A stretch of 62,160 nucleotides of DNA from Candidatus Buchananbacteria bacterium (GCA_030650095.1 JAUSEE010000062.1:1-62160); one strand, 5' to 3'; counted from the first letter of the stretch, positions 22,602 through 55,038 are shown. The notes: a model not told the origin generated them from the sequence alone. Made by a program: numbers and translations.

Positions 22602-25247
22602 TTAGGTCCATTCGTCTTCAGAAAAAACCTTTTTCTTTTTCGTTTCCGGCTTTTCGTCTTCTGTTTCAGTCTCATCTTCGTCTTCTATATCCTCTGGCTT
22701 ATCGTTATCTTTTTGATCATCGTCGTCACTTTCTTCAGCTTCATTTTCTTCTTCTGTCGCTGCTACTTCTTCCGTTACTTCTTCTGCCTCATCTTCACCG
22801 GTAATATCATTAATTTCCTCCTCTGATTCGCTTATTTCACTGTTATCTTCAGCTTCATCTAAATCATTTTTGCCGGATAAATCTTCTTCGCTACTGTCAT
22901 CCAAATCTTCGTCTTCGTCTTCTTCATCATCATAAAAACTATCATTTTGATTTTGTTCCAAGGGCCTTAACTCACCGGTTAAATCATGCTCGCGCGAGGC
23001 GAATTTAAGCGGATCAACTCCGCCCAATTTATCCAAAAAAACTTCTCTGGGCTTAGCGCCGTCAGGCGGGCCGATTACTCCTTGTTCCTCCAGCAAGTCC
23101 AATATTCTGGCCGCTCTGGCATAACCTATTTTTAATCTTCTCTGCAGTAGAGAAGCCGAGGCTTTGCCCGATTCCCTGATAATTTCTTTGGTCTCTCCTA
23201 AAAGGGCGTCGCCGCTGTCATTATAAAATCCTTTGCCGTCACTGCTGGAATAGCCAGACTGCCTTTCCACCACTTCCTCAATATAATCCGCTGGGCCCTG
23301 CTGCTTGATATAGTTTATTATATTGTGTGTTTCCCGGTCTGAAATAAATACACCCTGGATTCTTTTGGGCTTGCTGGTTTCCGGCCCGATATAAAGCATA
23401 TCGCCCCGGCCGACTAATTTTTCCGCTCCGGAGGTATCTAAGATTGTCCTGGAATCAATAAGCGAGGCCACGGAAAAAGCAATGCGAGCCGGAATATTGG
23501 CTTTAATCAAGCCGGTAATAACTTCCACCGATGGCCTTTGCGTGGCTAAAATCAAATGGATGCCAACGGCTCTGGACATTTGAGCCAATCTGATAATGCC
23601 GGCTTCCACGTCGTTGGCGGCCGTAGACATTAAATCGGCCAACTCATCAATGATAAAAATAATGTAGGGCAATTTATCAGAAGCGTTTCTATTATAAGCG
23701 GCGATATTCCTTTTACCGGCTCTGGATAAAATATCAAAGCGCCTTTCCATTTCCACGGTTGTCCATTTAAGAGCATTGATTGTTTTTTTAACATCAGTTA
23801 TAACCGGCGTTAAAAGATAAGGAATGCCATTGTAAACAGGCAGTTCTACTCGTTTGGGATCAACTAAAATAAATTTAAGTTCATCTGGACTGTTCTGATA
23901 AAGCAAGCTGGTGATAATGGAATTGATGCAAACTGATTTGCCGCTGCCGGTAGCGCCGGCTATTAAAAGATGAGGCATCCTGTCCAATTGGACCAGGTAA
24001 GGCTTGCCACTGACATCTTTGCCTAACACCATCATCAAATTGCTTTCCCGATTTTTAAACTGCGATCCGGCTAATATCTCGTTCATCGTAACCTTAGCCG
24101 CCATTTGATTGGGAATTTCTACACCCACCAGTGATCGGCCGGGTATGGGCGCTTCTATCCTAATGGGATGGGCCGCTAAAGCCAAGGCTAAATCGCTGTT
24201 TAAATTTATGATTTTGGATAATTTAACGCCATCGGCCGGACGAAAAGTATATTGGGTGACAGTCGGACCAATATTGACATCAGCCATATCAACTTCAATG
24301 CCAAAATTAGACAAGGTTTTTTTTATAATCTGCTGATTGGATTTAATATCACCGCTCGTGGGCTTGCCTGATTTGCTCACCAGTAACTCCAAGGGCAATT
24401 CTATTTTTTTGCCGAACTTTTTCGGTTTGATTATTTTAGAATCTTCTTCATCGTCAGCCTCCGATAAGCTGACGGCTTTTTTTTCAAATTGAGGCTCGGT
24501 ATAATCTTTGTCTGGTGTTTGATCTTCTTCTTTGGCTAGACTTTCATCTTCGGCTTCAATTTCATCTTCGTCTTCGTCTTCTTCTTCCTCGTAACCATTT
24601 GGCTCACGCTTATGCTGTTGGACTAAAGTGGAAATCTTATTGTAAATAAACTTAAATAATTTCACCGGCCACATCAAGCCATAAAGAGAAGTTTCAAAAG
24701 TTAAAAGCAAGCCGATGATAAAGACAGCCAAACAAACAACCAGAGTGCCCCAGAAACCCATAAGTTTCAAAAGAGGCCAAGACAAAATCAAGCCGCTATA
24801 ACCGCCGCCCAAACCCTGGCCGGCCGCGAAAACCGAGTTTTTTATATCAAACTGCAAATGCCATAAAGCTGTCAGCCCCAAAACTAAAAATACCGTTCCG
24901 GCATAATTTACTACCTTTATGCCATAGCTGTCTGAGCGGAGCATGAAATAAGCAAAAAGCAAGGCGACGACAGGGAAAAGCCATTTTAAAGCGCCCAACA
25001 TCCAAGAAATAATTTTAACTACCACTTGGCCGAAAGCGCCTGATAAATCAAAAAGGCCTAAAAAACTCAAGGCTGCTAAAACAAATAAAAAAATGATGAT
25101 AATGCCTTTTTTGGTTTCGTTGGATATGCTCCAATCCATGCCGAAACCACCCTCTGTGGACCTGGGGGTGGGATAATGCCTGTTTCTTATTTTCTTTCTG
25201 TTGAGTAATTTTTTTAAGACGGTATTGTTGCGGCGACGATAAGCCAT
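22602..25247 (-). CDS. ftsK: DNA translocase FtsK/SpoIIIE with a long acidic C-terminal tail
   Basis: N-terminal TM helices, Walker A GATGSGKS, gamma winged-helix LLQRRLKIGYARAARILDLLEEQGVIG, then about 170 aa rich in D/E. Confidence 0.93.
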   Translation of the reverse strand: MAYRRRNNTVLKKLLNRKKIRNRHYPTPRSTEGGFGMDWSISNETKKGIIIIFLFVLAALSFLGLFDLSGAFGQVVVKIISWMLGALKWLFPVVALLFAYFMLRSDSYGIKVVNYAGTVFLVLGLTALWHLQFDIKNSVFAAGQGLGGGYSGLILSWPLLKLMGFWGTLVVCLAVFIIGLLLTFETSLYGLMWPVKLFKFIYNKISTLVQQHKREPNGYEEEEDEDEDEIEAEDESLAKEEDQTPDKDYTEPQFEKKAVSLSEADDEEDSKIIKPKKFGKKIELPLELLVSKSGKPTSGDIKSNQQIIKKTLSNFGIEVDMADVNIGPTVTQYTFRPADGVKLSKIINLNSDLALALAAHPIRIEAPIPGRSLVGVEIPNQMAAKVTMNEILAGSQFKNRESNLMMVLGKDVSGKPYLVQLDRMPHLLIAGATGSGKSVCINSIITSLLYQNSPDELKFILVDPKRVELPVYNGIPYLLTPVITDVKKTINALKWTTVEMERRFDILSRAGKRNIAAYNRNASDKLPYIIFIIDELADLMSTAANDVEAGIIRLAQMSRAVGIHLILATQRPSVEVITGLIKANIPARIAFSVASLIDSRTILDTSGAEKLVGRGDMLYIGPETSKPKRIQGVFISDRETHNIINYIKQQGPADYIEEVVERQSGYSSSDGKGFYNDSGDALLGETKEIIRESGKASASLLQRRLKIGYARAARILDLLEEQGVIGPPDGAKPREVFLDKLGGVDPLKFASREHDLTGELRPLEQNQNDSFYDDEEDEDEDLDDSSEEDLSGKNDLDEAEDNSEISESEEEINDITGEDEAEEVTEEVAATEEENEAEESDDDDQKDNDKPEDIEDEDETETEDEKPETKKKKVFSEDEWT

Positions 25248-25343: not shown

Positions 25344-28300
25344 TTAAATTACTGGTTCGGTAACAGGAGCCGGCTCTGGCGCAGGAGCTGGTGCCGGATC
25401 TGGTTCCGGTGTTGGTATTGGCTCTGGTGCTGGAGCCGGATCTGGTTCAGGCGCCGGCTCTGGTTCTGGAGCCGGTGTCGGTTCCGGTTCAGGCGTTGGA
25501 TTAGGCTCTGGTTCTGACGCTGGATTAGAATTTGGTTCCGGATTTGAAACAACCGGGTTGTAAGTACAGGAGCCGTCGTTTTCGGTGGCCGAGAGGTTAT
25601 AATTGTTAGCGCTTGGATCGGTACAACCCATAACGGCGCTGTCTCCGGCAACTTGTGGGGTAGGAGTATTTTCAATGGTTCCTTGGACGGCTAAAGATAG
25701 CCAATCAAAGGAGATGTCTTTATTAATGGTCGGGCTCATATTCAATCTGAAACCTTTGGCAGTTTTATCAGAAATCCAATAATTCTTGCTTTCCAAATTA
25801 TCAAGAGGCGTAACCACGATTCTAGGAGTGCCTAAATATTCAGTGGCAAAAATAATTTCTGTGCTGGTGGCAAAAGCGGGAATGGTAATGCCGCCAGCCT
25901 GATCCTTATTAACATAAATTTTGCCTTTGACATCTATATCGTTTTGGAAAGACACTTTAACCGCAAAATTAGCTTCGCCTAAAACAGTGATCGTGCCATA
26001 GAAAGTGGCGGCTTCTCTAACTACAAGTTCATCTTGCGTTTGATAATTGTTGTTCACAGCCAACAGGCCTACTTGGGCATCCAATTCCTTGACGGCGGCC
26101 ATAGTGATGCCGATCCAATCCATTGAATTTATTCCTTGATCTTCGCCAATATCGAAATATTGATTGATGTAATCCACGAAGGGAGAAATGTGCCGTCTCT
26201 GATCGTCGGCGTATCTATTTGCTCCATCGACTACTTCATTCTTATACTGCCACTCATAAAGTGGCATAGCCCGCAATTTCTCAAGATAGCCGACGGGTTG
26301 AGTCCAATTATCCTTATACCAACTGTATGAAGGAGCATCTGTCCAAACTCCAGCCGTAGTCAAGCGAGCGCTAGAATCGTCCCAAATTGGCCAAGTGGTA
26401 CCGGTAGTGCCAATGCTTATGCCGTAACCTGTTTGCGAGGCAAGTCCGAATCCAACCACACCCGATGTGTTTAATGTTGTAACTCCGCTAACAGCTCCAC
26501 TAGTCACATCCCAACTGCTGCTATTTATATTCACTATATCTCCTCCATCACCGATAGTCAGTGTGGAATTTGTCGTCCATGTGCCATTAACAGTGTTGCT
26601 TGATAGTGTTCCGCCACTGACAGTAATAGTATCATCAACTTCAGCATTAGAAACAACAGAGCTTCCTGCAACTAAATTTGACGCTGTCAAAGTATCAGAA
26701 ACTTGAGCATCAGCTATTTCTCCCGTTGAAAAAAAGCTAGTGGCACTATCGCCCGTTAAAGCGGCACCTGCTTCGGCATCACCAGCGGCGTAATTATTTG
26801 TTGTGTCGGTGCCTAATGCCACGGAGTTGAGGGCAATAGTAGCGACAACCGAACCAGGACCGGAAGCAGTAACATCGCCAGTCAAGGCAGTAATATAATT
26901 TCCCGTGGCTTGTTTGGCATTTAATTGTGTTTGAATGGCCGAAGTGACACCATCGACATAATTCAACTCCGTGCCGGTCGGCAAGACTGAAACTCCGCCG
27001 AGAGTAAAGGGGGTGGCCATAGTAAATGTTCCATCAACGCTTAAAGTTCCGCCATAATGTCCGTTGCCTTTGGTGAATAATCCAGAAGTGGAAGACGCCC
27101 AACCCCCAACTGTTAAATTACCAGAAGTGGTGGCGTTCCTGCCTACATACAAATCACCAGCGCCAATGGTAGAGCCAAAGGTACTAATGACATCTGTAGT
27201 ACCAATATTGAGCCAGTTGGAAGTGGTGGCAGTGTTGACCACGAGATTAGTGATAGTGGAAGAAGCCGTGTTAACCAAGATGCCTCTGGTGGAAGTAGGA
27301 GATAGAGCCGTCGCATCAAAGGCGTACCAAGCGCCGGATTGACCGCCAGTAACCGTCAGAGCCCCGCCTGATATAGTCAAACCTAAACCAGTCAGATCAG
27401 TAAAGTATTCGCTGTTAACACCCAGGCCGGTGGTGTAGAAATTAGTGGTAGTGGCACTACCATCAATAGTCAAGTTGCCTCCGTAGTGACCAGAACCTTG
27501 AGTAAAGAGTCCCAGAGTGGTGGACGCCCAACCTAGAACAGTTAAGTTGCCTGAAGTGGTGGCGTTTCGTCCCACATACAAATCTCCTGCTCCAATGGTA
27601 GAGCCAAAGGTACTAATGACATCAGTCGTGCCGATATTAAGCCAACCCGAGGAAGTGGCGTTGCCATCAACACTTAAACTGCCTCCATAGTGACCAGAAC
27701 TTTGGGTAAAGAGTCCTAAAGTTGTGGAGGCGTAGCCGCCAAAAATACCATTATTTTGTATATTTAAATTTCCCGCGGAAAATAATGCGTCAGTCGGAGC
27801 CGTGCCAATAGTCAAATACCCCGTTGAAGTGGCGTTGCCGGTATTTGTTAGGCCATTAACATCAAGCATTCCACTCATATTTAAATCATCCGAAAGAGTG
27901 AAATTGCCCTGGCTTACGCCCAACGCGCCGGCATTATTCCAACCGAAACTTTCTCCACCGGCATCGAAATAAATTTTATCATCGTCGGAATTTGAAGTTT
28001 GGCCTATAAATAAATCTTCACCCACATACATGAAATTAGTGGTTGTGGCATTTCTGCCCACATACAAATCTCCTGCTCCAATATTAGCGCCAAAAGTGCT
28101 AATAACATCTGTCGTGCCGATGTTGAGCCAGTTGGAAGTGGTAGCGGTATTGACGACGAGATTAGTAATGGTGGAAGAAGCCGTGTTGACTAAGATGCCT
28201 CTGGTGGAAGTAGGAGATAGAGCCGTAGCGTCAAAGGCATACCAAGCGCCGGAAGCGCCAATATTGGCTACAGTCAAAGCGCCTCCGCTGATAGCTAAAC

Positions 28301-30791
28301 CGCTGCCAGTTAGATCGGTAAAGTATTCACTGTTAACGCCCAGGCCGGTAGTGTAGAAATTAGTGGTCGTGGCGCTGCCATCAATAGTCAAGTTGCCGCC
28401 GTAGTGGCCATTGCCTTGAGTGAAGAGTCCCAGAGTAGAAGAAGCCCAACCTAGAACAGTTAAGTTGCCTGAAGTGGTGGCATTCCTGCCTACATACAAA
28501 TCCCCTGCTCCAATAGTAGAGCCAAGCAGTCCAAAGACATCAGTGGTGCCAATATTGAGCCAGTTAGAAGTGGTAGCATTGCCATCAATACTTAAATTGC
28601 CCCCATAGTGGCCACTACCTTGGGTAAAGAGTCCCAGAGTGGTGGAAGCGAAACCCAGACCATATAAATGTTCCGTTGTAGTCGCGCTACCATCAATTCT
28701 TAGACCGCCTTGGAATAAAGCAGATGTGGTAGCAGTAGAAACAACATGCAGAGTATAAGCCGGGCTATCCGTTCCGATGCCAACTCTGCCGCCGCTTGTC
28801 GGTTGCAAAAGAATTTTTCCAACTTCAACTGATCCAGCTCCACCCTCTAACACAACATTGCCCCCGGTGCCCGTAACCAGAGAGCCCTGTCCGCCGGCTC
28901 CACCGGTAATCGTTATAGCTCCGCCAGTACCGCCAAATCCGCCACCGCCAGTGCCATCGCCACCTAAGCCACCAGTGAGATTGATCGCACCGCCAATATT
29001 GCCAGTAAGCGCAGTTCCTCCTTTTCCTCCTGTTACAGTTAAGACTGATAAAGCGTCTGCTCCAGCACCGGCATTTGAACCCACAACATGCAACTTGGCC
29101 GCCGGAGTCGTTGTTCCAACTCCAACACTGTCAGTATCAGCCTGAACCACTAGAGTACTGGTGTCTACGGTTAGATTGCCACTAGTTGTAGCATTTCGTC
29201 CCACATACAAATCGCCAGCGCCAATAGTAGAGCCAAAGGTGGCAATGACATCAGTGGTACCAATATTGAGCCAGTTAGAAGTGGTAGCATTGCCATCAAT
29301 ACTTAAATTGCCCCCGTAGTGGCCACTACCTTGGGTAAAGAGTCCCAGAGTGGTGGAAGCATAACCTCCAAAAATACCATTATTTTGTACGTTCAAGTTT
29401 CCTGCGGAAAATAATGCGTCAGTCGGAGCTGTGCCAATAGTCAAATACCCCGTTGAAGTGGTGTTACCGTTTAAAACAGTATCGCCTTGGACATTTAAAG
29501 TGGTGGTGCTGTTGGTGATAGCTCCGCCTAAGGCTATCATGCCTAAGATATACATGTTTTGAGTTGTGGTGGCATTGCCCTGGACATAAAGCTTGGTAGT
29601 AGAGGCTGTGCCATCGTTGGTAATGGTGAAGTATCTGGTGCCGGCAAAGTAAGCGGAGTTGTCAATGACTTCCAAGTAGTTACCAGTGCCATTTTGGGAG
29701 ATAGTGAGGGCGGTTGAAGAAGTGACGCTTAAGTTCTTGTTGGACTCAATCCAGACGCTGCCTTTCATATGCGTCCAATCAGAATTGGCCATATCGCCTA
29801 GATAAGAATTGTTTTCTACAGTTAAAGTAGAGATAGTGGAAACACCTACGCTTTGGGTGCCAGAGAGAGTGAGGTTGTTGGCAAAGACATCCCCTTCGGC
29901 ATCAACTAAGAATTTAACACTGTCAGCTACAGCTAATCCTAAAAGATTAGAATCCCCCACAGCTGAAGCTGGGTTGATGTAGATAGAAGCGTTGTCGGCG
30001 TTAGCATTAGTTGTGCCCGGAGACCAAGAGCCGAAGGAATGAGGCAGGGTGGGTGAATTGGTGGAAATGGTAATGCCGTTGATGTAGAGGTTGCCGTCTA
30101 TTTCCGCGTCATTAGCTACGTAGAGTTCGCCGGAGGAGAAATTCAAATGATTAACCGTGCCTGCTCCTACCATCAAATAGCTGGTAGTAGTAGCTTGGGT
30201 GATGCTTAATCCTTTGCTGCTATCCAAAGCTAGAATCTGTCCGGCGGTGGCGGTGGTGGTGGCATGCAAGCCGTCAACCGTATCGGAGTTGAAAGCGTAA
30301 GGCGAAGAAGTGATTCTTTTTCGAGGCGTGAAAGTTTCTTCAAAACCACCATCGCTATTGGCATCAAATTTAACAGAGAGGAAAAGAGAATTAGAATTGA
30401 AATCGACAGTAGAAAGCGAAGTGGAAGTGCCCAGGTTAACCGAGAAGATGCCCCGAGTTATGCTCACAGCGCCGGGAGTGGTAGTGGCGGTCCAAGTTTC
30501 TTCCCAAAGCAGGGTGCCTGAGGTGACATCATCATAGAGTTGGAATTGAAAGCCGTAACTGCCGGTGGTGACCGAGAGACCGGAAGAGTTGGCTATTTTG
30601 CCTTGATAAGTTATTTGTTGGTTGATGCCTAGGGCGGCTTGGGTAGTAGAAACTGCAGACAAATCAAAGACTATCCAAGCCGCTGCTAAAATCGGCACGA
30701 CAAGCAAAATTAAAACCAGCACAAGATTAGTAGAGAAAAATCTATTTTTCAATTTCATGAGGTGGCTGAATTGTTTTAAAAATTTAATCAT
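25344..30791 (-). CDS. Giant repetitive surface protein, 1815 aa (N-terminal TM/signal anchor, Gly/Thr/Asn-rich repeats, tail-fibre chaperone-like domain, Cys-bracketed module, Pro-rich tail)
   Basis: Single uninterrupted ORF. Repeated blocks such as GYASTTLGLFTQGSGHYGGNLSIDGNATTSNWLNIGTTDV..GAGDLYVGRNATTSGNLTV. C-terminal PEPEPTPAPEPEP tail. Confidence 0.85.
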   Translation of the reverse strand: MIKFLKQFSHLMKLKNRFFSTNLVLVLILLVVPILAAAWIVFDLSAVSTTQAALGINQQITYQGKIANSSGLSVTTGSYGFQFQLYDDVTSGTLLWEETWTATTTPGAVSITRGIFSVNLGTSTSLSTVDFNSNSLFLSVKFDANSDGGFEETFTPRKRITSSPYAFNSDTVDGLHATTTATAGQILALDSSKGLSITQATTTSYLMVGAGTVNHLNFSSGELYVANDAEIDGNLYINGITISTNSPTLPHSFGSWSPGTTNANADNASIYINPASAVGDSNLLGLAVADSVKFLVDAEGDVFANNLTLSGTQSVGVSTISTLTVENNSYLGDMANSDWTHMKGSVWIESNKNLSVTSSTALTISQNGTGNYLEVIDNSAYFAGTRYFTITNDGTASTTKLYVQGNATTTQNMYILGMIALGGAITNSTTTLNVQGDTVLNGNTTSTGYLTIGTAPTDALFSAGNLNVQNNGIFGGYASTTLGLFTQGSGHYGGNLSIDGNATTSNWLNIGTTDVIATFGSTIGAGDLYVGRNATTSGNLTVDTSTLVVQADTDSVGVGTTTPAAKLHVVGSNAGAGADALSVLTVTGGKGGTALTGNIGGAINLTGGLGGDGTGGGGFGGTGGAITITGGAGGQGSLVTGTGGNVVLEGGAGSVEVGKILLQPTSGGRVGIGTDSPAYTLHVVSTATTSALFQGGLRIDGSATTTEHLYGLGFASTTLGLFTQGSGHYGGNLSIDGNATTSNWLNIGTTDVFGLLGSTIGAGDLYVGRNATTSGNLTVLGWASSTLGLFTQGNGHYGGNLTIDGSATTTNFYTTGLGVNSEYFTDLTGSGLAISGGALTVANIGASGAWYAFDATALSPTSTRGILVNTASSTITNLVVNTATTSNWLNIGTTDVISTFGANIGAGDLYVGRNATTTNFMYVGEDLFIGQTSNSDDDKIYFDAGGESFGWNNAGALGVSQGNFTLSDDLNMSGMLDVNGLTNTGNATSTGYLTIGTAPTDALFSAGNLNIQNNGIFGGYASTTLGLFTQSSGHYGGSLSVDGNATSSGWLNIGTTDVISTFGSTIGAGDLYVGRNATTSGNLTVLGWASTTLGLFTQGSGHYGGNLTIDGSATTTNFYTTGLGVNSEYFTDLTGLGLTISGGALTVTGGQSGAWYAFDATALSPTSTRGILVNTASSTITNLVVNTATTSNWLNIGTTDVISTFGSTIGAGDLYVGRNATTSGNLTVGGWASSTSGLFTKGNGHYGGTLSVDGTFTMATPFTLGGVSVLPTGTELNYVDGVTSAIQTQLNAKQATGNYITALTGDVTASGPGSVVATIALNSVALGTDTTNNYAAGDAEAGAALTGDSATSFFSTGEIADAQVSDTLTASNLVAGSSVVSNAEVDDTITVSGGTLSSNTVNGTWTTNSTLTIGDGGDIVNINSSSWDVTSGAVSGVTTLNTSGVVGFGLASQTGYGISIGTTGTTWPIWDDSSARLTTAGVWTDAPSYSWYKDNWTQPVGYLEKLRAMPLYEWQYKNEVVDGANRYADDQRRHISPFVDYINQYFDIGEDQGINSMDWIGITMAAVKELDAQVGLLAVNNNYQTQDELVVREAATFYGTITVLGEANFAVKVSFQNDIDVKGKIYVNKDQAGGITIPAFATSTEIIFATEYLGTPRIVVTPLDNLESKNYWISDKTAKGFRLNMSPTINKDISFDWLSLAVQGTIENTPTPQVAGDSAVMGCTDPSANNYNLSATENDGSCTYNPVVSNPEPNSNPASEPEPNPTPEPEPTPAPEPEPAPEPDPAPAPEPIPTPEPDPAPAPAPEPAPVTEPVI

Positions 30792-30793
30792 TT

Positions 30794-31009
30794 TTAATTA
30801 TTTCTAGTCACTAAAATTATCTCGTTATTAGATAGTGGCCTTGTTCCGGCTTGGGACGTCCTGGTCAATTCCAGATCTCTTAAATTATAAGCCACCCAAG
30901 CCGTCACAAATGTTAGCGGCACGACAAGCACTAATAAGCCCAGCATTATCTTCTTGAAGATGCTATTTCTGGATCTGGGCTCGAATTTTTCTATGGTTAA
31001 AAAATTCAT
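30794..31009 (-). CDS. Small membrane protein (71 aa) similar to the N-terminal anchor of the giant protein
   Basis: LLVLVVPLTFVTAWVAYNL compared with LILLVVPILAAAWIVFDL in the giant protein. The gene is 2 nt upstream of the giant ORF. Confidence 0.55.
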   Translation of the reverse strand: MNFLTIEKFEPRSRNSIFKKIMLGLLVLVVPLTFVTAWVAYNLRDLELTRTSQAGTRPLSNNEIILVTRNN

Positions 31010-31027
31010 AATAAAATAAAAACTTGG

Positions 31028-31222
31028 TTATCTTTTCTTACGTCCGGAACTCGTCATGTTGCGGCGCAGAAATTTAATCAAGTCGTTTTCAAACACCCTA
31101 TAAGTCTTATAACCTATTCTGGCGGCAGGAAGCTGGCCATCATTAACCCAACGGTAAACCGTTTTCAGGCTAACGTGCATTAATTTTGCCACTTCTCCGA
31201 TTGTTAAAATCCCTTGGGGCAT
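31028..31222 (-). CDS. Excisionase/MerR-type helix-turn-helix DNA-binding protein (64 aa)
   Basis: LTIGEVAKLMHVSLKTVYRWVNDGQLPAARIG matches the excisionase-family HTH pattern. Confidence 0.75.
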   Translation of the reverse strand: MPQGILTIGEVAKLMHVSLKTVYRWVNDGQLPAARIGYKTYRVFENDLIKFLRRNMTSSGRKKR

Positions 31223-31304
31223 TTTTATTTTTTATTTAAATTAAGATAAATAACCAAAATATATAATTATTTATTTTTTGGTTCCTTGGCCTAATTCTTA
31301 TGTT

Positions 31305-31334
31305 ATTATAATTAATAATGTACTGAATTGTCAA
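31305..31334 (-). promoter_or_regulatory. Sigma70 promoter of the HTH / small TM / giant-protein operon
   Basis: Minus strand: TTGACA (31334-31329), 18-nt spacer, TATAAT (31310-31305). Confidence 0.6.
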
Positions 31335-31340
31335 TTATAA

Positions 31341-31460
31341 GTTATCAACAGTTGTTAATTTAACTAAATATAACCTAATCATTCCTTATTGTTAATTATT
31401 ATTATTATTAGTTATCAATTTAACTTATTATAACTCTATTATTCCTTATTATTAATTATT
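31341..31460. repeat. Two degenerate tandem repeats of about 50-60 bp in an AT-rich regulatory region
   Basis: GTTATCAA..TTTAAC..TATAAC..ATTCCTTATTGTTAATTATT (31341-31400) and GTTATCAATTTAAC..TATAACTC..ATTCCTTATTATTAATTATT (31411-31460). Confidence 0.6.
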
Positions 31461-31568
31461 GTTCTTAATTGACAAAATATTTAAGCTCTAAAAAAATTCC
31501 ACTAAATTAGAATGGAGTTGTATAAAAATAGGTTGATTTAGCTAAAAAAACATTATAAATACATCTTT

Positions 31569-31645
31569 GTCATTGCGATCCGCCCAGGGCGGAGAAGCAA
31601 TCTCGTATTTGTTTGTCGTGGGATTGCTTCGTACCTCGCAATGAC
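31569..31645. repeat. REP-like three-way palindrome GTCATTGCGA...TCGCAATGAC
   Basis: 10-bp outer stem enclosing the hairpins ccgccc-a-gggcgg and gaagcaatc...gattgcttc. Lies just beyond the stop of the 926-aa gene. Confidence 0.6.
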
Positions 31646-31653
31646 ATAAAAGT

Positions 31654-34434
31654 TTAACCAAACTTACTCTCTGATTCTTGTTTGTTAATAACAGTTGCTT
31701 CAGTCTGTTCCACAACTGGAGACTCTGGCTTATCCCCTGTTTGGTTTATGGTATTAGTAGTAGAAATCATATCATCTTCAGAAGATGGGGGCGGAGTTTC
31801 AGTAGAATCATCTGGCGGTGATTGATTGCTAACACTTTTTTCGGCTTCTTGTTTTAATTTGTCAGCTATTTCAGCCAGAGGTGATTTTTCTGCGCTGATT
31901 GTTTCCTCCGAAGTTGGATTAATAACCTCCTCTTTCTCTTCTATTTTTATTTCATCAATATTTTCCACTGGCGCATTACTATCTCCTTTAGAAATATTAT
32001 TTTCCAGCTGATTACTTTCTGGCGCGCTAGGTATCGGCTCCAGCTTAATATCTTGGCCAATGACTTCTTCTGATTTTTTATGAGTCAAATCAATATTCTC
32101 GGTCTTAGCTTCGCTATAGCCATCTTTGGCAGCTGAAATGTAATAGATATTATTGCCGGCCAAAAATCCATAGCGACCATGCCTATCGGTAACTTGAGCT
32201 TCAAGCATCTTATTGTATTCGGGCGAATAAATTTTAGCCACTGTGCCGGAAATAGGCTTGCCTGTTTTAGCATCTAGCACAATACCCCACCTATTAACTT
32301 TCTCTCTGGCCACCAACCTTCTAAACAAGAGATACAGTATTATATGAATAACGGCGAAAGAAGCCATAAGTACACTGGGGAAAATAGCAAAAGAAACCAA
32401 GGCGAAAATCGGGCCGGCCAAGCTGATATTTTTTTGGATAATATACCGGAAATTTTTTCTCCTAACTTCTTGATCTGATATTTTGGCATCCGGCGGATCA
32501 ACTGGGATGTTGGCGGTAATAATTCCCTTTTGATCCTTGGTGATTGATATTAGCTCACCATGGTAGATATTGGTGAACTGCCTGTCCTCTGATGAATCTT
32601 TTAAAATATCAGAGGGGAACACCATGCTTTGCTTAACCACTTCCAAAATATAATCGCCTTCCGAAACTAAGAAATTATATCGCCCCTCTCTATCGGTAAC
32701 TCTGGATTTTAATAATCTGCCTGTTGTTTTGTCGTATAATCTGATAACGGCCAAATCAATCGGTTTTTTGGTAATGGAATTGTAAACCACACCCCAGCCT
32801 TTTTTCTTGCGCCTAAAAAACCAAGCCAGCGGTTCGGTAAACAAATATTGCATGTAATTGATAAAGCCCCACCAAGGAATAGCTATAAAAGCGCTGATAG
32901 TGGCTAGGCTGGCTACAAAAGGGGCGGTATATTGGTTTACTTTTTCCACCACTGGATTATCTAATATATCCTTGATAATTTTTAAAATCTGTTCCAATAA
33001 GGTTAGGCCGATATCCTGATTGATGATGTTATTTCTAACATTAAATAATCTGCCATCATATATCTTTTGGCCATTGTCAAAGACAACTAATTTATACCTG
33101 CCGTTTTCCACCATAAAACCGTAAGTCCCATCCGGATTTATCTTGCTTAGCTGTATTATTAATTTATTATTTTCATTATACAGTAAAACCGAGATGCCAA
33201 AAATCCTGGTTTTATCTTCTGGCAATTTGGAAAAGACATGGCCCAGTGGATGAACGGTGATTATTATATTTTTTTCTTGGACTGAATTATCGGCATAGAC
33301 AACCGATAATTTAACATAATTCTTGCCCAGGGTATTAAATCTGTTTAATTGAAGCAAGTATTGATTTGAACTGGTGTCATAGGTAAAAGGCCATGTCTCT
33401 CCGCCGCTAACGGCCGTAATTTGTTTAACCTCTTTGGGAAAATTATTAGGTACTAAAATCAATAATTCATGGCTGATTAAAAGATCAATATTGTCATTTA
33501 GCAAAAACAACTGCAGGCCGTTATTATTGGTAAAAAAATAATAGTTCGGTCCTACCAATCCGCCTGTCGGAACAGTAGGCACAGAATAGACACAGGTGCC
33601 GTTGTTTACGGAAGCGCTGGAATCATAATTTAAAGCTCTGCTGTCGGTACAACCAAAAACCGGATAAGTGCAACTGCCATTGTCTATGGTCGCTTGAGGA
33701 TTGTAGTTTAAAGCCGAGCCATCGGTACAGCCGGGAATATCATTGGGGTCATAAGAACAGGTGCCATTATCCACATTGGCCTGAGGATTATAATTGACAG
33801 CCGTCGGATCGGTACAGCCCGAGACAATGCAAGAGCCATTATCGCTGGTGGCTTGGGGGTTATAATTACCAGCCAAGGGATTAGTACAGCCGGAAATTAG
33901 ACAACTGCCATCATCAATAGTGGCCTGAGGATTATAATTATCAGCCAAGGGATTAGTGCAGCCGGCTAGCTGATAAATACAACTACCATCATCAATAGTG
34001 GCCTGGGAATCATAATTTATAGCTGTCGGATCCATACAACCAGAGTTTATATACTCACAAGAACCGTCATCCTGGTTGGCTGATGGGTTATAATTGACAG
34101 CAATTTGATCGGTGCAGCCTAAAACAACCGGCTGGCAAGAACCATCATCAATAGTGGCGCTAGGATTATAATTGACAGCCGTGGGATCGGTACAGCCATA
34201 GACATCATAGATGCAAGAACCGTCATCAATAGTAGCGCTAGAATTATAATTTAGAGCCAAAGGATCGGTACAACCGTAAACAGGAACTGGAGGTGGAGGT
34301 GGCGGTGGGGGCGGAGGAGGATTACCACCAGAAATTCTAGCATTGATATTTACATCGGCCGCCGACACAAAAGAAACGGCTGAAACCGCTAGAAAAAATA
34401 TTAAGCCAATTATAAGTAATTTCTTAGAGAGCAT
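31654..34434 (-). CDS. Large surface/membrane protein, 926 aa (signal peptide, poly-Pro, 9 tandem Cys-bracketed modules, TM segments, two carboxypeptidase-regulatory-like domains, acidic S/T-rich tail)
   Basis: Nine copies of GCTDPxAxNYNxxAxxDDGSCxY. Two segments match the CarboxypepD_reg pattern (VIRLYDKTTGRLLKSRVTDREGRYNF; AKIYSPEYNKMLEAQVTDRHGRYGF). Confidence 0.8.
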   Translation of the reverse strand: MLSKKLLIIGLIFFLAVSAVSFVSAADVNINARISGGNPPPPPPPPPPPVPVYGCTDPLALNYNSSATIDDGSCIYDVYGCTDPTAVNYNPSATIDDGSCQPVVLGCTDQIAVNYNPSANQDDGSCEYINSGCMDPTAINYDSQATIDDGSCIYQLAGCTNPLADNYNPQATIDDGSCLISGCTNPLAGNYNPQATSDNGSCIVSGCTDPTAVNYNPQANVDNGTCSYDPNDIPGCTDGSALNYNPQATIDNGSCTYPVFGCTDSRALNYDSSASVNNGTCVYSVPTVPTGGLVGPNYYFFTNNNGLQLFLLNDNIDLLISHELLILVPNNFPKEVKQITAVSGGETWPFTYDTSSNQYLLQLNRFNTLGKNYVKLSVVYADNSVQEKNIIITVHPLGHVFSKLPEDKTRIFGISVLLYNENNKLIIQLSKINPDGTYGFMVENGRYKLVVFDNGQKIYDGRLFNVRNNIINQDIGLTLLEQILKIIKDILDNPVVEKVNQYTAPFVASLATISAFIAIPWWGFINYMQYLFTEPLAWFFRRKKKGWGVVYNSITKKPIDLAVIRLYDKTTGRLLKSRVTDREGRYNFLVSEGDYILEVVKQSMVFPSDILKDSSEDRQFTNIYHGELISITKDQKGIITANIPVDPPDAKISDQEVRRKNFRYIIQKNISLAGPIFALVSFAIFPSVLMASFAVIHIILYLLFRRLVAREKVNRWGIVLDAKTGKPISGTVAKIYSPEYNKMLEAQVTDRHGRYGFLAGNNIYYISAAKDGYSEAKTENIDLTHKKSEEVIGQDIKLEPIPSAPESNQLENNISKGDSNAPVENIDEIKIEEKEEVINPTSEETISAEKSPLAEIADKLKQEAEKSVSNQSPPDDSTETPPPSSEDDMISTTNTINQTGDKPESPVVEQTEATVINKQESESKFG

Positions 34435-35371
34435 TACGATGCTTATTTTTTCTTTTAAATACTTTAATTAAAGCTGCTACTGCCAGTAAAAATAATACAA
34501 TCAAAGCTAGCGGCAGCCAAGGAATTACCCAAAAATAAATCAGTTCGGAATCTAAACTCTTGCCGTCGCCATAAGTTACAAGAGCTTGAGCGCTGAATCG
34601 TCCAATGGCAAAATGCCTTAACTCCTCGGCTAAATTAGAAAATAAATTTTTATTTTCATCTAAACTCCAAACTGTTTCAAATACTCTAATGGTGCCGGGC
34701 AAAATAGCGCCACTCTGGCCATTAACGGTTAGGGCTTCCACGGTCTGGCCCAGGAGATTTTTAATAATAATCGATCCTTGCGGCCTTTCATGGATGTTGC
34801 CGGAATTTCTTAAACGCAAGAAAAAATCTATAGGCAAACTGCTGTAAAAATTTCTGGTTGTCTTTAAATTAAAATCAATTATCTCTAGATTATTATTTAC
34901 CTCGCCCTTGACCTCCAAGAGCACTAATTCTCCTACCCGGCTGGAAACAAGGGCCTGGTGGCTCTTTGCCGATTGAGGCCCAGAAGATGACTCCCACATG
35001 ACCGCCAGATAATAACCGCCCAGGCCGGCTGTTTTGGGAATATCTATAACCACCGGAACAGAAATACTCTCGCCTGGCCTCAACACCAAGGAATTATTAG
35101 GTAATTTTATCCAATTAACCGACTTGTCAGAAACATCAAAAGGCAAAATCTGCGTTTGACCGTTCTCGCCTTTGGGCTCGAATTTTTCTATTGAGCCGTT
35201 TAAAAAAATATCCTCGCCGGTTTCATTATAAAGCTGCAATTGATATGTCTGTGATTGCCCGGGATCCAGATTAATATCAATTATAGCCGGGGCGATTGTC
35301 AGAGCACTGGCTGAAAAAGGCAAAAAAATAAAAATAAATAATAAGCTTAGTGGAAATAAAAACTTCATCAT
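34424..35371 (-). CDS. Cell-surface protein resembling DUF916/DUF3324 (WxL-locus type), C-terminal TM anchor
   Basis: Signal peptide, LDPGQSQTYQLQLYN and ILPGTIRVFETVW blocks, C-terminal TM plus a KRKNKHR stop-transfer sequence. Overlaps the next gene by 11 nt. Confidence 0.6.
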   Translation of the reverse strand: MMKFLFPLSLLFIFIFLPFSASALTIAPAIIDINLDPGQSQTYQLQLYNETGEDIFLNGSIEKFEPKGENGQTQILPFDVSDKSVNWIKLPNNSLVLRPGESISVPVVIDIPKTAGLGGYYLAVMWESSSGPQSAKSHQALVSSRVGELVLLEVKGEVNNNLEIIDFNLKTTRNFYSSLPIDFFLRLRNSGNIHERPQGSIIIKNLLGQTVEALTVNGQSGAILPGTIRVFETVWSLDENKNLFSNLAEELRHFAIGRFSAQALVTYGDGKSLDSELIYFWVIPWLPLALIVLFLLAVAALIKVFKRKNKHRNAL

Positions 35372-35381
35372 AATAAACTAT

Positions 35382-36092
35382 TTAGAAATTAGCCGTAGCC
35401 GTATAAGTAATGGTGGTAGTGTAAGTGCCATTTTTTTCATCACCGCTGATATTGGCGATGAAATGTATATCGAAAGTGGTCTGGTTAATCTGACTAGTAG
35501 AACTGATAATTTCATCGCCACTATTGAAAGCATAGATATTTTCAGAATTGTAGGGTGAGAGCGAAGAAGCAATTGGAGCCGAACCGCTACTATAAATGGC
35601 ATTAAAGCCAAATTGGCTGGTGCCTATGATGGAGGCGGCGCCCGTTGATCCTATTGGGCTGACCGTATTTATGCCGCTACAAGCCGAGCAGGTTAGAGTA
35701 GCCCCAGCATAGGTTATGCTAACTCCCGTATAAGCATTGGTTTCCACGATTAAAACAAGTGAACCAACGGCCGTGCCATGCTTATCTAGTTGGCCAAATT
35801 CTAATGATGACTGGCTGCTACTAAAGGATAAAACAGTTTGTCCGGTATAGAATTCCTGACTTCTAAAACCAGGCTTGAGGCCACTACTGGTGGAGGAAGA
35901 ATTGTCCAAGCCGAATTCTCCCAGGGTGTCTTGTAAAATATAGTCGTTTGAAGATTGATTTTCGCCGCCACCAACCGAAATGGCATCTTGCCAAATCTGG
36001 TAATTGCTCGAAGTCATGGCCGCTTCCAGAAAATTAGGAAAAACAAAAATAGCCAATAAAAAACAAATTAAAAAATTAACTAATTTTGCCAT
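35382..36092 (-). CDS. Secreted protein, 236 aa, unknown family (Ser/Thr/Gly-rich, beta-rich appearance)
   Basis: Signal peptide MAKLVNFLICFLLAIFVFPNFLEA. First gene of a three-gene operon. Confidence 0.6.
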   Translation of the reverse strand: MAKLVNFLICFLLAIFVFPNFLEAAMTSSNYQIWQDAISVGGGENQSSNDYILQDTLGEFGLDNSSSTSSGLKPGFRSQEFYTGQTVLSFSSSQSSLEFGQLDKHGTAVGSLVLIVETNAYTGVSITYAGATLTCSACSGINTVSPIGSTGAASIIGTSQFGFNAIYSSGSAPIASSLSPYNSENIYAFNSGDEIISSTSQINQTTFDIHFIANISGDEKNGTYTTTITYTATANF

Positions 36093-36160
36093 ACGCCAGG
36101 CTAGAAATATTATTTTAAGATGACTATATTATAACACAAAACAATAATTTCTAAAAAATT

Positions 36161-36207: not shown

Positions 36208-39200
36208 TTAAATATTCTTTTTAAATCCGGTACCAGCTGGAATCAAGCGGCCGATAATAATATTTTCTTTCAGCCCTGATAAATCATCAGTCTTGCCGGT
36301 AATAGCGGCATTGATCAAAACTTTGGCTGTTTCTTGGAATGAAGCGGCAGCCAGCCAGCTTCTGGTGGAAAGAGAAACTTTGGTAATACCCAAAAGCAAA
36401 CGATCAAATTCAACTTCCTTTTTGCTTTCTTTCTTTAATCTCTTATTTTCATAAGCCACGTCGATATATTCAACTATTTCACCCGGCAAGAGATCACTGT
36501 CACCGGCCTCACGGATATAAACTTTGGAGAACATCTGGCGCACAATAACTTCAGCATGCTTGTCATTAAGTTTTTGGCCCTGGGAAGAATAAATATGCTG
36601 TATTTCACGCATAATATATTTTTGCGTAAACTCTTGTCCCTTAAGACGGAAAATTTCGTGCAAATCCAAACTGCCTTCGGTTAATTGATCGCCCGGCTCA
36701 ACGCTGTCGCCATCTTTTATCAAAAGAGAAATATGTCCTGGAATAATATATTCCTTAACACCCAGTTCTTTGCCGGAAACAGTCAATGAATTTTTATCTA
36801 CTTTAACTGTGCCGTCAACCTGGCTGGTTTCTTGTTCTTCGCCGTTGGTAAACAGGATTTGGCCTTTAACTATAGTGTCGCCGTTTTTAACTTCAATCTT
36901 CAAATCGGCTTTATTTTTAGGCAAAGGAATCTTTTTAATCAATTCATTATCATAACTTATCTGCAAAACTCTTTCTCTGGATGAAGTAACCAAAACCTTG
37001 CCTTCGGTATTTTTTATTTCCCGCTGGCCTTGAGTAATCTTAACCTGGCCTTTTATATCCGCCACAATAGCCTTGGCTTTGGGCGTTCTGGTTTCAAAAA
37101 TTTCTTCCACCCGAGGCAGACCTTGGGTGATATCGCCTTCGGACGCCACACCTCCGGTGTGAAAGGTTCTCATAGTCAACTGAGTGCCAGGTTCGCCCAC
37201 GCTTTGAGCGGCAATAATGCCAACAGCGGTGCCTTCTTTTACCAGTTTATTGTAACTTAGATCATAGCCGTAGCATTTTTGGCAAATGCCTTTAATGGTT
37301 TTGCAAGACAAAACGGATCTGATTCTGAGGCTGTCTAAATCGGCTTTTCTTAATTCGTCGGCATTTTCTTCGGTGATTAGTTGTCCAGCTTTAATCAAAA
37401 CCTTTTTATTTTTTGGATTAATAACATCTTCGGCTGGATAGCGTCCTATTAGCCTGTCCACCAAAGCTTCCCCCATGGTTTCACTTTCCACTTTGGTTAA
37501 TTCCAAACCTTCTTTGTCGCCGCAATCTTCTTCTGAAACAATCACATCTTGTGCCACATCAACCAATCTTCTGGTTAGATAGCCGGCAGATGATGTTCTA
37601 AGAGCCGTATCGGTTAAGCCTTTTCTGGCGCCATGAGTGGAAATAAAGAATTCCAAGACGTCAAAGCCTTTTTTAAAGTTGCTTTTAACCGGCAATTCAA
37701 TAACTTCATAAGAAGGGTTAACCACTGGGCCTTTCATACCAATCATCTGGTTTAATTGTCCCCAAGTTCCACGAGCGCCGGAATCAATCATGGCCCTGAT
37801 GGAATTGCCTTCTTTTAAAATGCCTTGGACATTGCCTAAAATATTATTATTAACCTTCAACCACAGCTCAACGATTTTATCATGCCTTTCATCTTCGGTT
37901 AAAAGACCCATTTGGTATTGCTGTTCTATTTCATCCAATTTAACATTACCCTCTTCAATTAATTTTTCCCGGTTAGGAATTTCACCCAAATCATCCATGC
38001 CGATTGATTGAGCGGAAACGGTTAAATATTTAAAAGCTATTTCTTTTATGGAATCAAGGGTGCTAACTGTTACCTCTGGTCCGAATTTGTATAAAATTTG
38101 TCCCAAGAGTTTGGAAAGGTATTTCTTAGTGACTCTTTCGCCTATAAATTCCAATTCACTGGGTAAAATAGAATTAAAGATAATCAAACCAATAGTAGCT
38201 ATTTGGAGTTCCATCTTCTTAACTTTCAAACCTTTTTTAAGCATCAGCACCTTAATTTGATCATGAAGCGTGATTATGCCTTTTTCATAAGCCAACATAG
38301 CCTCATTAACAGACGAATAAGTCTTGGGCTTCTCTTTTTCATTTATCGTAGTCAAATAATAACAGCCCAAAACGATGTCTTGGTTAGGCGTAACAATCGG
38401 CCGGCCGTCTGAAGGCTTAAGCAGATTCTTGGAAGAAAGCATTATTTCAGCCGCTTCTTTCCTGGCGCCTTCGGTTAACGGCACATGAACAGCCATTTGG
38501 TCGCCGTCAAAATCAGCGTTAAAAGCGCTACAAACCAAAGGATGAATCCTGATAGCTTTGCCTTCGGTTAAAATCGGTTTGAAAGCCTGGATGCCTAAAC
38601 GGTGAAGGGTGGGAGCGCGATTAAGCAAAACATAAGCTCCGGTCACCACTTCTTCCAAAAGATCCCAGATTTCATCATGTCCGGCTTCAATATACCTATT
38701 GGCGCTTCTGACGTTGTGGACAATGCCTCTTTTAATCAATTTAGAAATAATAAACGGTTTGAATAATTCCAAAGCCATTATTTTAGGAATACCGCATTGA
38801 TCCAAATGCAATTCGGGACCAACCACGATAACGCTTCGTCCTGAATAATCGATTCTTTTACCCAGCAAATTCTGCCTGAATCGTCCTTGTTTGCCTTTCA
38901 ACATGTCGGCAATGGACTTCAGCATTCTCTTTTGCCCGGTAGAAGCCACAACGGTTTTGCCATGCCTGGCATTATTATCAATCAAAGCATCAACCGCTTC
39001 TAGCAGCATTCTTTTCTCGTTTCTGGTAATAATTTCCGGAGCGTTCAATTCCTGAAGCTGTTTCAAACGATTGTTTCGGTTGATTACCCGGCGGTACAAA
39101 TCATTCAAATCAGAAGTGGCAAAGCGTCCGCCATCTAACGGCACCATAGGCCTTAGATCCGGCGGGATTATCGGCACAACAGATAACACCATCCACTCCG

Positions 39201-40092
39201 GCCTGATGCTGTTTTTAATCAAGTGATTGAAAAATTTAATTCTTCTGATTAATTTATCCCTTTTAGCGCCGGTTGATTTTTCCAGTTCTTTATCCAAACC
39301 GGCAATGGTTTTGGCGATATCAATTTTTTCCAAGAGATTTCTGATAGCTTCGGCTCCGATGCCGGCTTCAAAAATATGTCCGTATTTTAAAGACAAATCA
39401 TGGAAGGTATGTTCGGAAATTATCTTGAGAGGCTTCAATTCTTTTAATTCCATTTCGGCTACCGCTAAAGTATTTTCCAGTTCGGTTAATTTTTCTTCTT
39501 TTTGGGTGATAAGCTTGCCCACTTGTCCTTCGGCTGTCGCTGTGCCCTTTTCGGTCAGCTGTTTGATGCGATTATCAAAATCGCTTTCAATTTGCTTGCG
39601 GTATTGCTTGTATTCGGCTTTAAGTTGGGCCAAGGTTTCTATCTTTAAATCATCATTAACCGTGATAATGATAAAGTCAGCAAAATAAATCACTTTCTCC
39701 AGATTCTGGATAGACATATCCAAAGCCAAACCGATGCGTGAAGGCACGCCTCTTAAAAACCAAATATGGGAAACCGGCACAGACAAATCTATATGTCCCA
39801 TTCGTTCGCGCCTAACCACGGCTCTGGTAACTTCCACTCCGCACTTGTCGCAAATTATGCCTTTGTACCTTATTTTTTTGTACTTGCCACAATAGCATTC
39901 CCAATCCTTGACCGGACCGAAAATCTTTTCGCAAAACAGGCCGTCCTTTTCGGGCTTTTGAGTTCTGTAATTTATAGTCTCGGGACGCAAAACTTCGCCA
40001 TAAGACCAATCATGGATATTATCAGGAGAAGCTAAACGCAATTTGATTGAAGTAAAATCTTCTGCGATTCTGTGTTCCTGGGTATTTAGCAT
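36208..40092 (-). CDS. rpoC: DNA-directed RNA polymerase subunit beta'
   Basis: NADFDGDQM catalytic motif, Zn-binding Cys near the N-terminus, full collinearity. Confidence 0.98.
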
Positions 40093-54893: not shown

Positions 54894-54897
54894 ATTT

Positions 54898-55038
54898 TTA
54901 TAATGTTGCTGCCCGAGTACCACTGGCTTTTAAGCCAGGGGATGAAGGGCAGTGTGAGGAAAAATACGTCGGCGGAGCCGACACCTTCCATTTGAAACCG
55001 CCCAGATACCCCGCTCTTTAGAGCGGGGGCGGGTTCAT
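54898..55038 (-). repeat. Structured repeat family, copy E (forward orientation on the minus strand, 4 nt upstream of the ileS ATG)
   Basis: Full-length copy. Its 3' end ...gcagcaacattataaaaat abuts the ileS start codon. Confidence 0.85.

Follow-up and report, generated by a model that had tools for sequence, protein, structure and literature searches.

What does a run of six genes lying between rpoC and an FtsK gene do for a member of the candidate phyla radiation (CPR)? The question is raised by a contig of Candidatus Buchananbacteria bacterium (GCA_030650095.1 JAUSEE010000062.1:1-62160), whose entire 62,160 nucleotides we refer to as the window. The six open reading frames (ORFs), here named A to F, occupy positions 25,344 to 36,092 and lie on the minus strand downstream of rpoBC, just as a first-pass annotation, made from the sequence alone, had placed them. 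That annotation suggested that the genes might build a lineage-specific cell-surface appendage or adhesion complex, which would be of relevance to an episymbiotic way of life. A conserved surface-assembly locus is indeed what we find, but it is not specific to the lineage, as it belongs to the Pam family described in 2026.

The filaments of Ca. Mycosynbacter amalyticus have been solved and are built by donor-strand exchange from two-domain pilins, PamA and PamB (bioRxiv 10.64898/2026.03.03.709456). The same work proposes PamT as a single-domain tip subunit without a linker strand, PamC and PamD as PapD/FimC-like chaperones with a C-terminal transmembrane (TM) helix, and PamR as an anchor whose N-terminal strand enters the last pilin and which carries a TM helix at its C terminus; it also describes a tail-fibre-like gene as central in the pam neighbourhood, reports Pam to be most prevalent in two classes, Saccharimonadia and Microgenomatia, and is the source from which the NCBIfam Pam models derive (bioRxiv 10.64898/2026.03.03.709456). 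At the level of its pilin domain and its chaperone, the locus in the window belongs to this family and is not a categorically new system, and we are highly confident that it is a Pam-type locus for donor-strand surface assembly.

A Pam-family pilin domain and a membrane-anchored chaperone

Profiles were taken from the June 2026 release of NCBIfam, and Pfam, PHROGs, Rfam and the PDB were also searched; queries of the PDB by sequence, made with A, B, C, F and two subregions of F, turned up nothing useful. Twenty-five loci (handles beginning with L), gathered by homologue look-ups and by a scan of GTDB species genomes that used a pilin alignment and one peptide pattern, were compared using hidden Markov models (HMMs) built for A and B together with phmmer queries for C, D, E, F, rpoB, rpoC and FtsK. 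The AlphaFold2 (AF2) models of A and B are monomers.

A is a predicted secreted, PamT-like protein whose C-terminal pilin domain is a member of the Pam family. Residues 94 to 236 score 93.6 bits against NCBIfam NF058581 (CPR_Pam_pilin_C, "Pam pilus system pilin subunit"), above the cutoff of 55, and residues 5 to 236 are collinear with positions 5 to 241 of the PamT model, which amounts to a full-length alignment. Together with the homology of B to canonical pam chaperones (see below), this overturns the earlier statement that the locus holds no known pilus genes. No Pfam family was matched by A, nor does the protein contain a W-x-L motif, so that it is not a WxL protein, in agreement with the first-pass annotation. 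In the AF2 model, built with 28 homologues, residues 85 to 236 form a confident beta-sandwich (predicted local distance difference test score [pLDDT] of >93), and residues 22 to 80 are disordered (pLDDT of <50). Foldseek matches the domain to the PapA, Csu, FimG, CfaB, and PapE pilins, with E values that are weak (~1e-3) but consistent.

The disordered N-terminal segment is among the best-conserved parts of the A family. It carries, between residues 26 and 80, the triple motif SxNYxI..GG / SxxYxLxDTxGE / SSTxY..GF, which is also present in true PamT proteins. The HMM of the A family matched 2136 representative clusters, whose members fall into size classes: proteins of ~210 to 260 amino acids (aa) match over their whole length, those of 320 to 400 aa match by the C-terminal domain only, and still larger ones carry the domain at their extreme C-terminal end.

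B is a predicted membrane-anchored chaperone of the PamC/D, WxLIP and PapD type, as judged from both its modeled fold and its homology. The signal peptide, C-terminal TM segment and basic tail noted for it previously are present, along with the blocks LDPGQSQTYQLQLYN and ILPGTIRVFETVW, and two immunoglobulin-like (Ig-like) domains complete its layout. The AF2 model (pLDDT of 90.4; predicted template modeling score of 0.80) consists of two Ig-like sandwiches and a TM helix, and the protein thus modeled has the signal peptide, two beta domains and C-terminal TM helix of a PamC/D-type chaperone. Its top Foldseek matches are the Enterococcus faecium WxLIP structures 9i25_C and 9i1y (E value of 6e-12), followed by RbmA, and further matches include the chaperones of chaperone-usher systems (CfaA, CsuC, DraB, EcpB, Caf1M, SafB, and FimC). 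The likeness to DUF916/DUF3324 proteins claimed in the first-pass annotation therefore holds for the fold but not for the sequence: B scores 15.3 bits (E value of 0.02) against PF06030 (DUF916, WxLIP_PGBD), below the cutoff of 27.3, and DUF3324 was not detected in it by Pfam.

Within the Pam family, B has a homologue (2.1e-34) in P0068, the chaperone of the canonical pam operon L007, and B-like chaperones also occur in L024 and in the Saccharibacteria pam operon L025. The NCBIfam chaperone models match none of these B-type proteins, those of canonical operons included. At the end of domain 1 of B, after a long, low-confidence loop (residues 130 to 144), lies the stretch QALVSSRVG, which we regard as a candidate complementing strand because a G1 strand is expected at such a position.

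Gene C and candidate donor strands

C is proposed to be a membrane stalk or anchor, a functional analogue of PamR in that it combines an N-terminal strand, a spacer, an ectodomain, and a membrane anchor. From its N terminus, it reads as a signal peptide, an amphipathic strand, a poly-Pro spacer, nine Cys modules, a beta-rich region, a membrane core, and an acidic tail. Each module is a 20-aa unit of the form C[TM][DN]...N[YF]...[DN]G[ST]C, and the nine copies use all 18 of the cysteines in the protein; as observed previously, C shares this Cys-bracketed module with F, which has a single copy that holds its only two cysteines.

The membrane core is the best-conserved portion of C among 11 orthologues, and a search with it returned 9 proteins. 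P0086, on a 1.15-Mb contig (L026), is a stand-alone C core in an unrelated context and was uninformative on the link to Pam. This 292-aa protein (L026 10001-10879; TM/CarboxypepD_reg, twice) sits beside a Band_7 gene without any Pam context, and the membrane core of C is therefore an independent module.

The ectodomains of the C orthologues are unrelated to one another and comprise Cys modules, FnIII/Pur_ac_phosph_N-like domains, or Cys-rich CGNG repeats. What the orthologues have in common at their N termini is a strand, x-V-N-I-N-A-T-I-P, placed right after the signal peptide and followed by a Pro-, Gly- or Glu-rich spacer. In two loci, L014 and L022, the C orthologue has no such strand, and a separate secreted protein encoded between B and C bears SVNINATIP or NLSIHATIP. 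A Dockerin_1 domain is present in the strand carrier of L014 (48.2 bits) and a Cohesin domain at the start of the C orthologue there (26.6 bits, which exceeds the cutoff); no dockerin or cohesin was detected in the corresponding two proteins of L022. A cohesin-dockerin pair is unusual within a CPR surface system. The split in L014 is natural evidence on which parts touch, namely, that the strand-bearing module belongs physically on C.

The linker (donor) strands of two-domain Pam pilins, to which the strand of the C orthologues bears a resemblance, follow the pattern (D/N)Q-V-x-V-S/T-A-T-V. A position-specific scoring matrix (PSSM) was trained solely on such linkers, which were extracted automatically from independent pilin representatives. 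Its top match falls at the mature N terminus in 6 of the 10 strand-bearing C orthologues as well as in the L014 strand carrier, and 2 more of the 10 have their second-best or a tied match there; when it is applied to PamR, the best match is the N-terminal strand SIGLSGVVP. Over the 19,523 positions of the ORFs in the window, QALVSSRVG of B ranks third. Orthologues of B also score at this position (QIGVSSRVG and QVKISGRVG), at which the alignment places GVSLSASLG in canonical-type chaperones.

From these indirect sequence patterns, we infer that assembly here probably proceeds by donor-strand exchange, in the following manner. A-B-C would constitute a compact, shaft-less variant of Pam, in which a Sec-dependent surface structure is put together by donor-strand complementation. 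A would serve as a PamT-like subunit with an open groove in its truncated-Ig domain and without a linker (donor) strand of its own. After Sec export, B would hold A by lending it the G1-type strand QALVSSRVG, which the mature N-terminal strand of C, ADVNINARIS, would then displace, locking A on the distal end of the stalk. The product would be a cap-on-stalk complex, anchored via the TM/CarboxypepD_reg core of C. D-E-F would form a separately promoted unit, in which a helix-turn-helix (HTH) regulator and a small TM protein are accompanied by an adhesin that resembles a trimeric fibre, is anchored at its N terminus, and is of a type found with pam operons across the CPR; the two units together probably mediate contact with host cells. 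We put the chances of the specific shaft-less, cap-on-stalk mechanism at just short of even.

Table 1. Positions of the genes and features discussed. Nucleotide positions refer to the window unless a locus is named, and the boundaries of genes A to F are ORF calls.
Feature	Position	Strand	Residues or length	Remarks
FtsK gene	22602-25247			Downstream neighbour of F
Gene F	25344-30791	minus	1815 aa	
F Cys module	25566-25625	minus	1723-1742	C-terminal part of F: variable beta domain, Cys module, PEP-rich tail
F S74-like segment			1493-1539	Weak; follows Gly/Thr-rich fibre repeats
F conserved N-domain	30126-30689	minus	35-222	
F leader	30669-30791	minus		Similar to E
F TM			23-41	
Gene E	30794-31009	minus	71 aa	
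Gene D	31028-31222	minus	64 aa	
Promoter match upstream of D	31305..31334	minus		TTGACA-18-TATAAT, 12/12, perfect sigma-70-like
Tandem direct repeats	31342..31461	no strand	2 × 60 nt	78% identical; just upstream of the D promoter match
Structured element after C	31561..31653	minus		Begins right after the C stop codon; putative operon-1 terminator
Gene C	31654-34434	minus	926 aa	
C conserved membrane core	32035-32922	minus	~505-800	TM, CarboxypepD_reg, TM, CarboxypepD_reg
C disulfide-bracketed modules	33592-34272	minus	55-281	Nine modules
C candidate donor strand	34330..34359	minus	26-35	ADVNINARIS; mature N terminus
Gene B	34424-35371	minus	315 aa	
B C-terminal TM	34460-34516	minus	286-304	Helix 285-314 in the AF2 model
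B candidate G1-type strand	34931..34957	minus	139-147	QALVSSRVG
Gene A	35382-36092	minus	236 aa	
A truncated-Ig pilin domain	35385-35840	minus	85-236	C-terminal
A N-terminal segment	35853-36017	minus	26-80	Conserved; predicted disordered
A signal peptide		minus	~1-25	
Promoter-like site upstream of A	36128..36155	minus		TTTAGA-16-TATAAT with TG extension (extended -10), in the rpoC-A gap; consensus match only
rpoC	36208-40092			Upstream neighbour of A; rpoC-A gap of 115 nt
L014 strand carrier	L014 4004-5356			Secreted; split from C orthologue
L014 C orthologue	L014 5372-8731			
L022 strand carrier	L022 4120-5175			Secreted; split from C orthologue
L022 C orthologue	L022 5188-8418			

Gene order in relatives, transcription units and the fibre genes

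A, B and C are adjacent in every related locus that is long enough (L001, L003, L004, L009-L011, and L014-L022), which establishes that the arrangement did not arise by chance and confirms the synteny on which the first-pass annotation had staked its interpretation. In all, the synteny extends over some 17 loci. The pair rpoB-rpoC lies immediately upstream of A-B-C in ten loci, D-(E)-F lies downstream in six (L001, L003, L010, L011, L015, and L022), and FtsK is found downstream in L015 and L020. The named sources are mostly Candidatus Buchananbacteria, along with Falkowbacteria and generic Patescibacteria. The contigs of several TPA assemblies (L009, L013-L015, L017, and L020) and of L024 are titled "uncultured Gammaproteobacteria bacterium" or, in one case, "Candidatus Nanoarchaeia archaeon"; on CPR-type loci, such titles are probably taxonomic mislabels.

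The canonical locus L007 runs from an ATP synthase operon through PamT (286.8 bits), two two-domain pilins, the chaperone P0068, and PamR (341.3 bits against a cutoff of 300) to a fibre gene. The order in the window, A-B-C-(HTH)-fibre, is collinear with that of L007, minus the two shaft pilins and with C in the place of PamR.

The close packing of the first three genes is as reported earlier, with a 10-nt gap between A and B and an 11-nt overlap between B and C, as computed from the coordinates, and all three proteins have a hydrophobic N-terminal leader. The promoter matches upstream of A and D, together with the folded element after C, make it plausible that A-B-C and D-E-F are separate transcription units. 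This element has 18-nt inverted arms (TCGCAATGACA...) around two hairpins, followed by a U-rich tail; its predicted RNA fold has an energy of -37.7 kcal/mol (z = -4.22), and none of 200 shuffled sequences was equally stable. A search of the locus and the C-D spacer against Rfam, the element included, matched no family, and its sequence was not found in the related loci. It is probably the terminator of the first operon, though an unusually elaborate one. The two tandem 60-nt repeats may be candidate operator sites for the HTH protein D.

D is, as first described, an excisionase-type HTH protein (HTH_17, 57.2 bits; TIGR01764, 49.7 bits). Its homologues lie directly upstream of an F-like gene in L001, L003, L010, L011, L015, and L022, with a second copy upstream of A in L001, and D is likely the regulator of the fibre gene F. 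E is a small protein with a single TM segment, homologous to the leader/anchor of F-like fibres elsewhere (MSFLTIEKF...LLVVP...AW); this leader is part of the F-like fibre itself in L001, L015, and L022 and stands apart as its own ORF in the window, L003, and L011. E ends 2 nt before the ATG of F, which has a similar leader of its own, an arrangement that looks like the duplication of a conserved leader.

F itself is probably an N-terminally membrane-anchored, repetitive, tail-fibre-like adhesin. Its N-terminal domain has homologues in the fibres encoded after the canonical pam operons L007 and L024 (7.8e-19 and 5.2e-14, respectively). Residues 48 to 136 score 36.5 bits (E value of 4e-9) against NCBIfam NF053851 (Bdello_MAT_N), under the cutoff of 60, and the match to Pfam Peptidase_S74 is likewise weak (18.1 bits; cutoff of 22). 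GC content rises to 0.47-0.48 over F, against about 0.40, matching the Gly/Thr/Ala-rich composition of the protein.

Elsewhere in the window, and apart from the locus, positions 51447-54923 (minus strand) encode a class I aminoacyl-tRNA synthetase of 1158 aa (tRNA-synt_1 and Anticodon_1), the catalytic domain of which is interrupted in its middle by an entire histidine phosphatase domain (His_Phos_1; 138.9 bits, residues 517-694).

Alternative readings, related systems and implications

Several observations weigh against parts of the account given above. A remains under the cutoff of the PamT equivalog NF058579, with 92.7 bits against 240, whereas the genuine PamT proteins of L007 and L025 reach 286.8 and 299.1 bits, and C does not match NF058578, the model of the RbmA-like anchor PamR (cutoff of 300), even at an E value of ≤10. 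The strongly conserved 55 N-terminal residues of A might be a donor segment. The 300-residue conserved core of C hints at a role beyond anchoring, and its membrane topology is ambiguous. One locus, L005 of an Uhrbacteria genome, pairs a two-domain pilin with a probable C-like anchor. With respect to the strands, the I-rich one in the C protein of the window (DVNINARIS), with R-I-S at its end, gets a poor score from the V-biased linker PSSM; motifs of nine residues are low in information (at most 7 bits), and the scores are low; and the C orthologues compared are not independent observations. A PSSM built from the N termini of C was not discriminating on canonical loci, for which reason the test was reversed and trained on the independent pilin linkers. 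Taken as a whole, the account is nevertheless our best explanation, and we judge it to be narrowly probable, a grading that is a compromise between our confidence in the family and that in the mechanism.

The most serious rival, which we consider unlikely, holds that the locus supplies the tip, the chaperone and the anchor for a full-length Pam pilus, with PamA/B-like shaft pilins that are encoded elsewhere in the genome and polymerize between A, as the tip, and C, as the terminator and anchor. It agrees with the published model, in which PamT forms the tip and the base is an anchor that donates a strand, and our view of the genome covers only about 62 kb. It also finds support in L005, where a PamT-like gene is found with a single two-domain pilin, a chaperone, a 3206-aa fibre, and a 1378-aa CarboxypepD_reg protein. 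The start of this last protein (L005 20737-20945; Cand. Uhrbacteria JACPHX010000016.1), compared over its first 69 residues, resembles the N-terminal domain of a two-domain pilin (VTNHVVRFVTPTG), which suggests that the anchor takes the form of a pilin-like terminal subunit. Against this rival, the pilin-family HMM finds no pilin-domain gene besides A in the 62-kb window, and Buchananbacteria-type loci consistently have one such gene each, with no two-domain pilin between A and B; moreover, the GTDB scan, restricted to a single peptide pattern, yielded one locus for each Buchananbacteria assembly. That A self-polymerizes, with residues 26 to 80 serving as an N-terminal donor extension like that of chaperone-usher pilins and with C as nucleator or anchor, strikes us as improbable. 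The segment is highly conserved and yet has a pLDDT of <50, as is typical of stretches that become ordered only in complexes, but it contains no clean amphipathic strand: the best linker-PSSM score in A is just 1.3 and lies in the C-terminal domain. True PamT proteins, which share the segment, are moreover described as acceptor-only tip subunits.

Two further readings carry very little probability. According to one, now largely refuted, the locus encodes a WxL-type complex in which B is a WxLIP orthologue that tethers its partner to peptidoglycan. WxLIP proteins are the best fold match of B, and they have the same architecture of signal peptide, two Ig domains and TM helix and insert a strand into the sandwich of their partner (PMC10599100); there is also the weak match to WxLIP_PGBD. 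Nonetheless, A has neither a WxL domain nor the motif and is instead a Pam pilin-domain protein, B stays below the DUF916 cutoff and shows no DUF3324, and WxL clusters have been reported almost entirely from Lactobacillales and Bacillales. The other reading, which we reject, is that D-E-F, as an excisionase with a tail fibre, is left over from a prophage or mobile element and has no functional relation to A-B-C. The excisionase-type HTH of D, the weak S74 match and tail-fibre-like character of F, and the raised GC over F would all fit such an origin. However, the PHROGs search gave A, B, C, E and F no meaningful family, and the stretch from C to FtsK shows no integrase. Several lineages keep D-(E)-F in synteny with A-B-C in the interval from rpoC to FtsK; fibres of the F type are also found after canonical pam operons, and the raised GC fits the composition of F.

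Other assembly pathways were considered and set aside. A sortase-dependent pilus is not indicated, as A, B, E, and F have no LPxTG-like motif and no sortase domains were found in the locus by Pfam, which is consistent with the first-pass annotation; the one loose match in C (NPLAG, at residue 185) lies inside the array of Cys modules and is not C-terminal. For an usher-based pathway, no Pfam usher or PapD match occurs among A to F, and B is TM-anchored.

With the donor-strand reading of A-B-C retained, the locus resembles the published Pam system in many respects. A has the Pam C-terminal domain and the length, architecture and N-terminal motif of PamT; B has the architecture of PamC/D and is homologous to the chaperones of canonical operons; and the gene order, the associated tail-fibre-like gene, and the reliance on Sec-dependent parts without a dedicated secretion machine are all common to both. 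It departs from that system in lacking two-domain shaft pilins (PamA/PamB/PamE, with an N-domain, a linker strand and a C-domain), in an A protein that scores below the equivalog cutoff, and in the replacement of PamR by the unrelated 926-aa protein C, with its multi-TM/CarboxypepD_reg core and swappable ectodomains. It also differs in location, adjoining rpoBC and FtsK where L007 adjoins ATP synthase genes, and in host, which is a Buchananbacteria-type member of the Parcubacteria and not of the Saccharimonadia or Microgenomatia. The first-pass annotation had allowed for the proteins turning out to belong to well-characterized but unrelated families; A and B do fall within a family that is now characterized, but it is a related one.

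B shares its architecture with WxLIP, and both are thought to complete the beta-sandwich of a partner by inserting a strand, but the partner A has a pilin-type truncated-Ig domain, the Pfam models are unmatched, and the phylum is another. Chaperone-usher pili (Pap, Fim, Csu, CFA/I, and Caf1) have in common with the locus the pilin fold of A, the logic of donor-strand complementation and exchange, and, in B, a PapD-like fold with a long F1-G1-type loop; unlike those pili, the locus has no outer-membrane usher, the envelope being presumably monoderm, B is tethered to the membrane, and the donor strand is proposed to reside on a membrane stalk protein. As for F, it recalls Bdellovibrio MAT fibres (PMC10769870) and S74 phage tail fibres in the weak Bdello_MAT_N match of its N-domain, in its length, its repeats and its variable C-terminal domain, and in coming from an organism expected to attach to cells. 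It differs from them in scoring below the curated cutoffs, in having an N-terminal TM anchor, and in lying beside a Pam-type operon in a CPR genome.

Pam pili, described in 2026, are the one known filament system reported to be CPR-specific, in organisms that rely on contact with host cells. The locus extends Pam-type systems to Buchananbacteria-type Parcubacteria, beyond the two classes in which they are most prevalent, and adds a second type of anchor, which has no relation to PamR and bears a candidate donor strand. Because public metagenome-assembled genomes mostly label A, B, C, F, and their orthologues "hypothetical protein", the assignments also have value for annotation. As a minimal set of cap, chaperone and anchor, the locus would make donor-strand assembly in a monoderm cell tractable with three proteins. 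It is conceivable, though on balance doubtful, that in Buchananbacteria-type CPR bacteria the Pam mechanism snaps a single PamT-like cap onto the N terminus of a membrane stalk and makes no filament, the stalk having a freely exchangeable ectodomain (Cys-knot modules, FnIII-like domains, Cys-rich repeats, or a cohesin by which a strand carrier with a dockerin is recruited). If true, this would represent a shaft-less, modular "one-subunit pilus" and would link Pam pili, the WxLIP complexes of Firmicutes and the chaperones of chaperone-usher systems through a single principle of strand lending, operating in monoderm cells.

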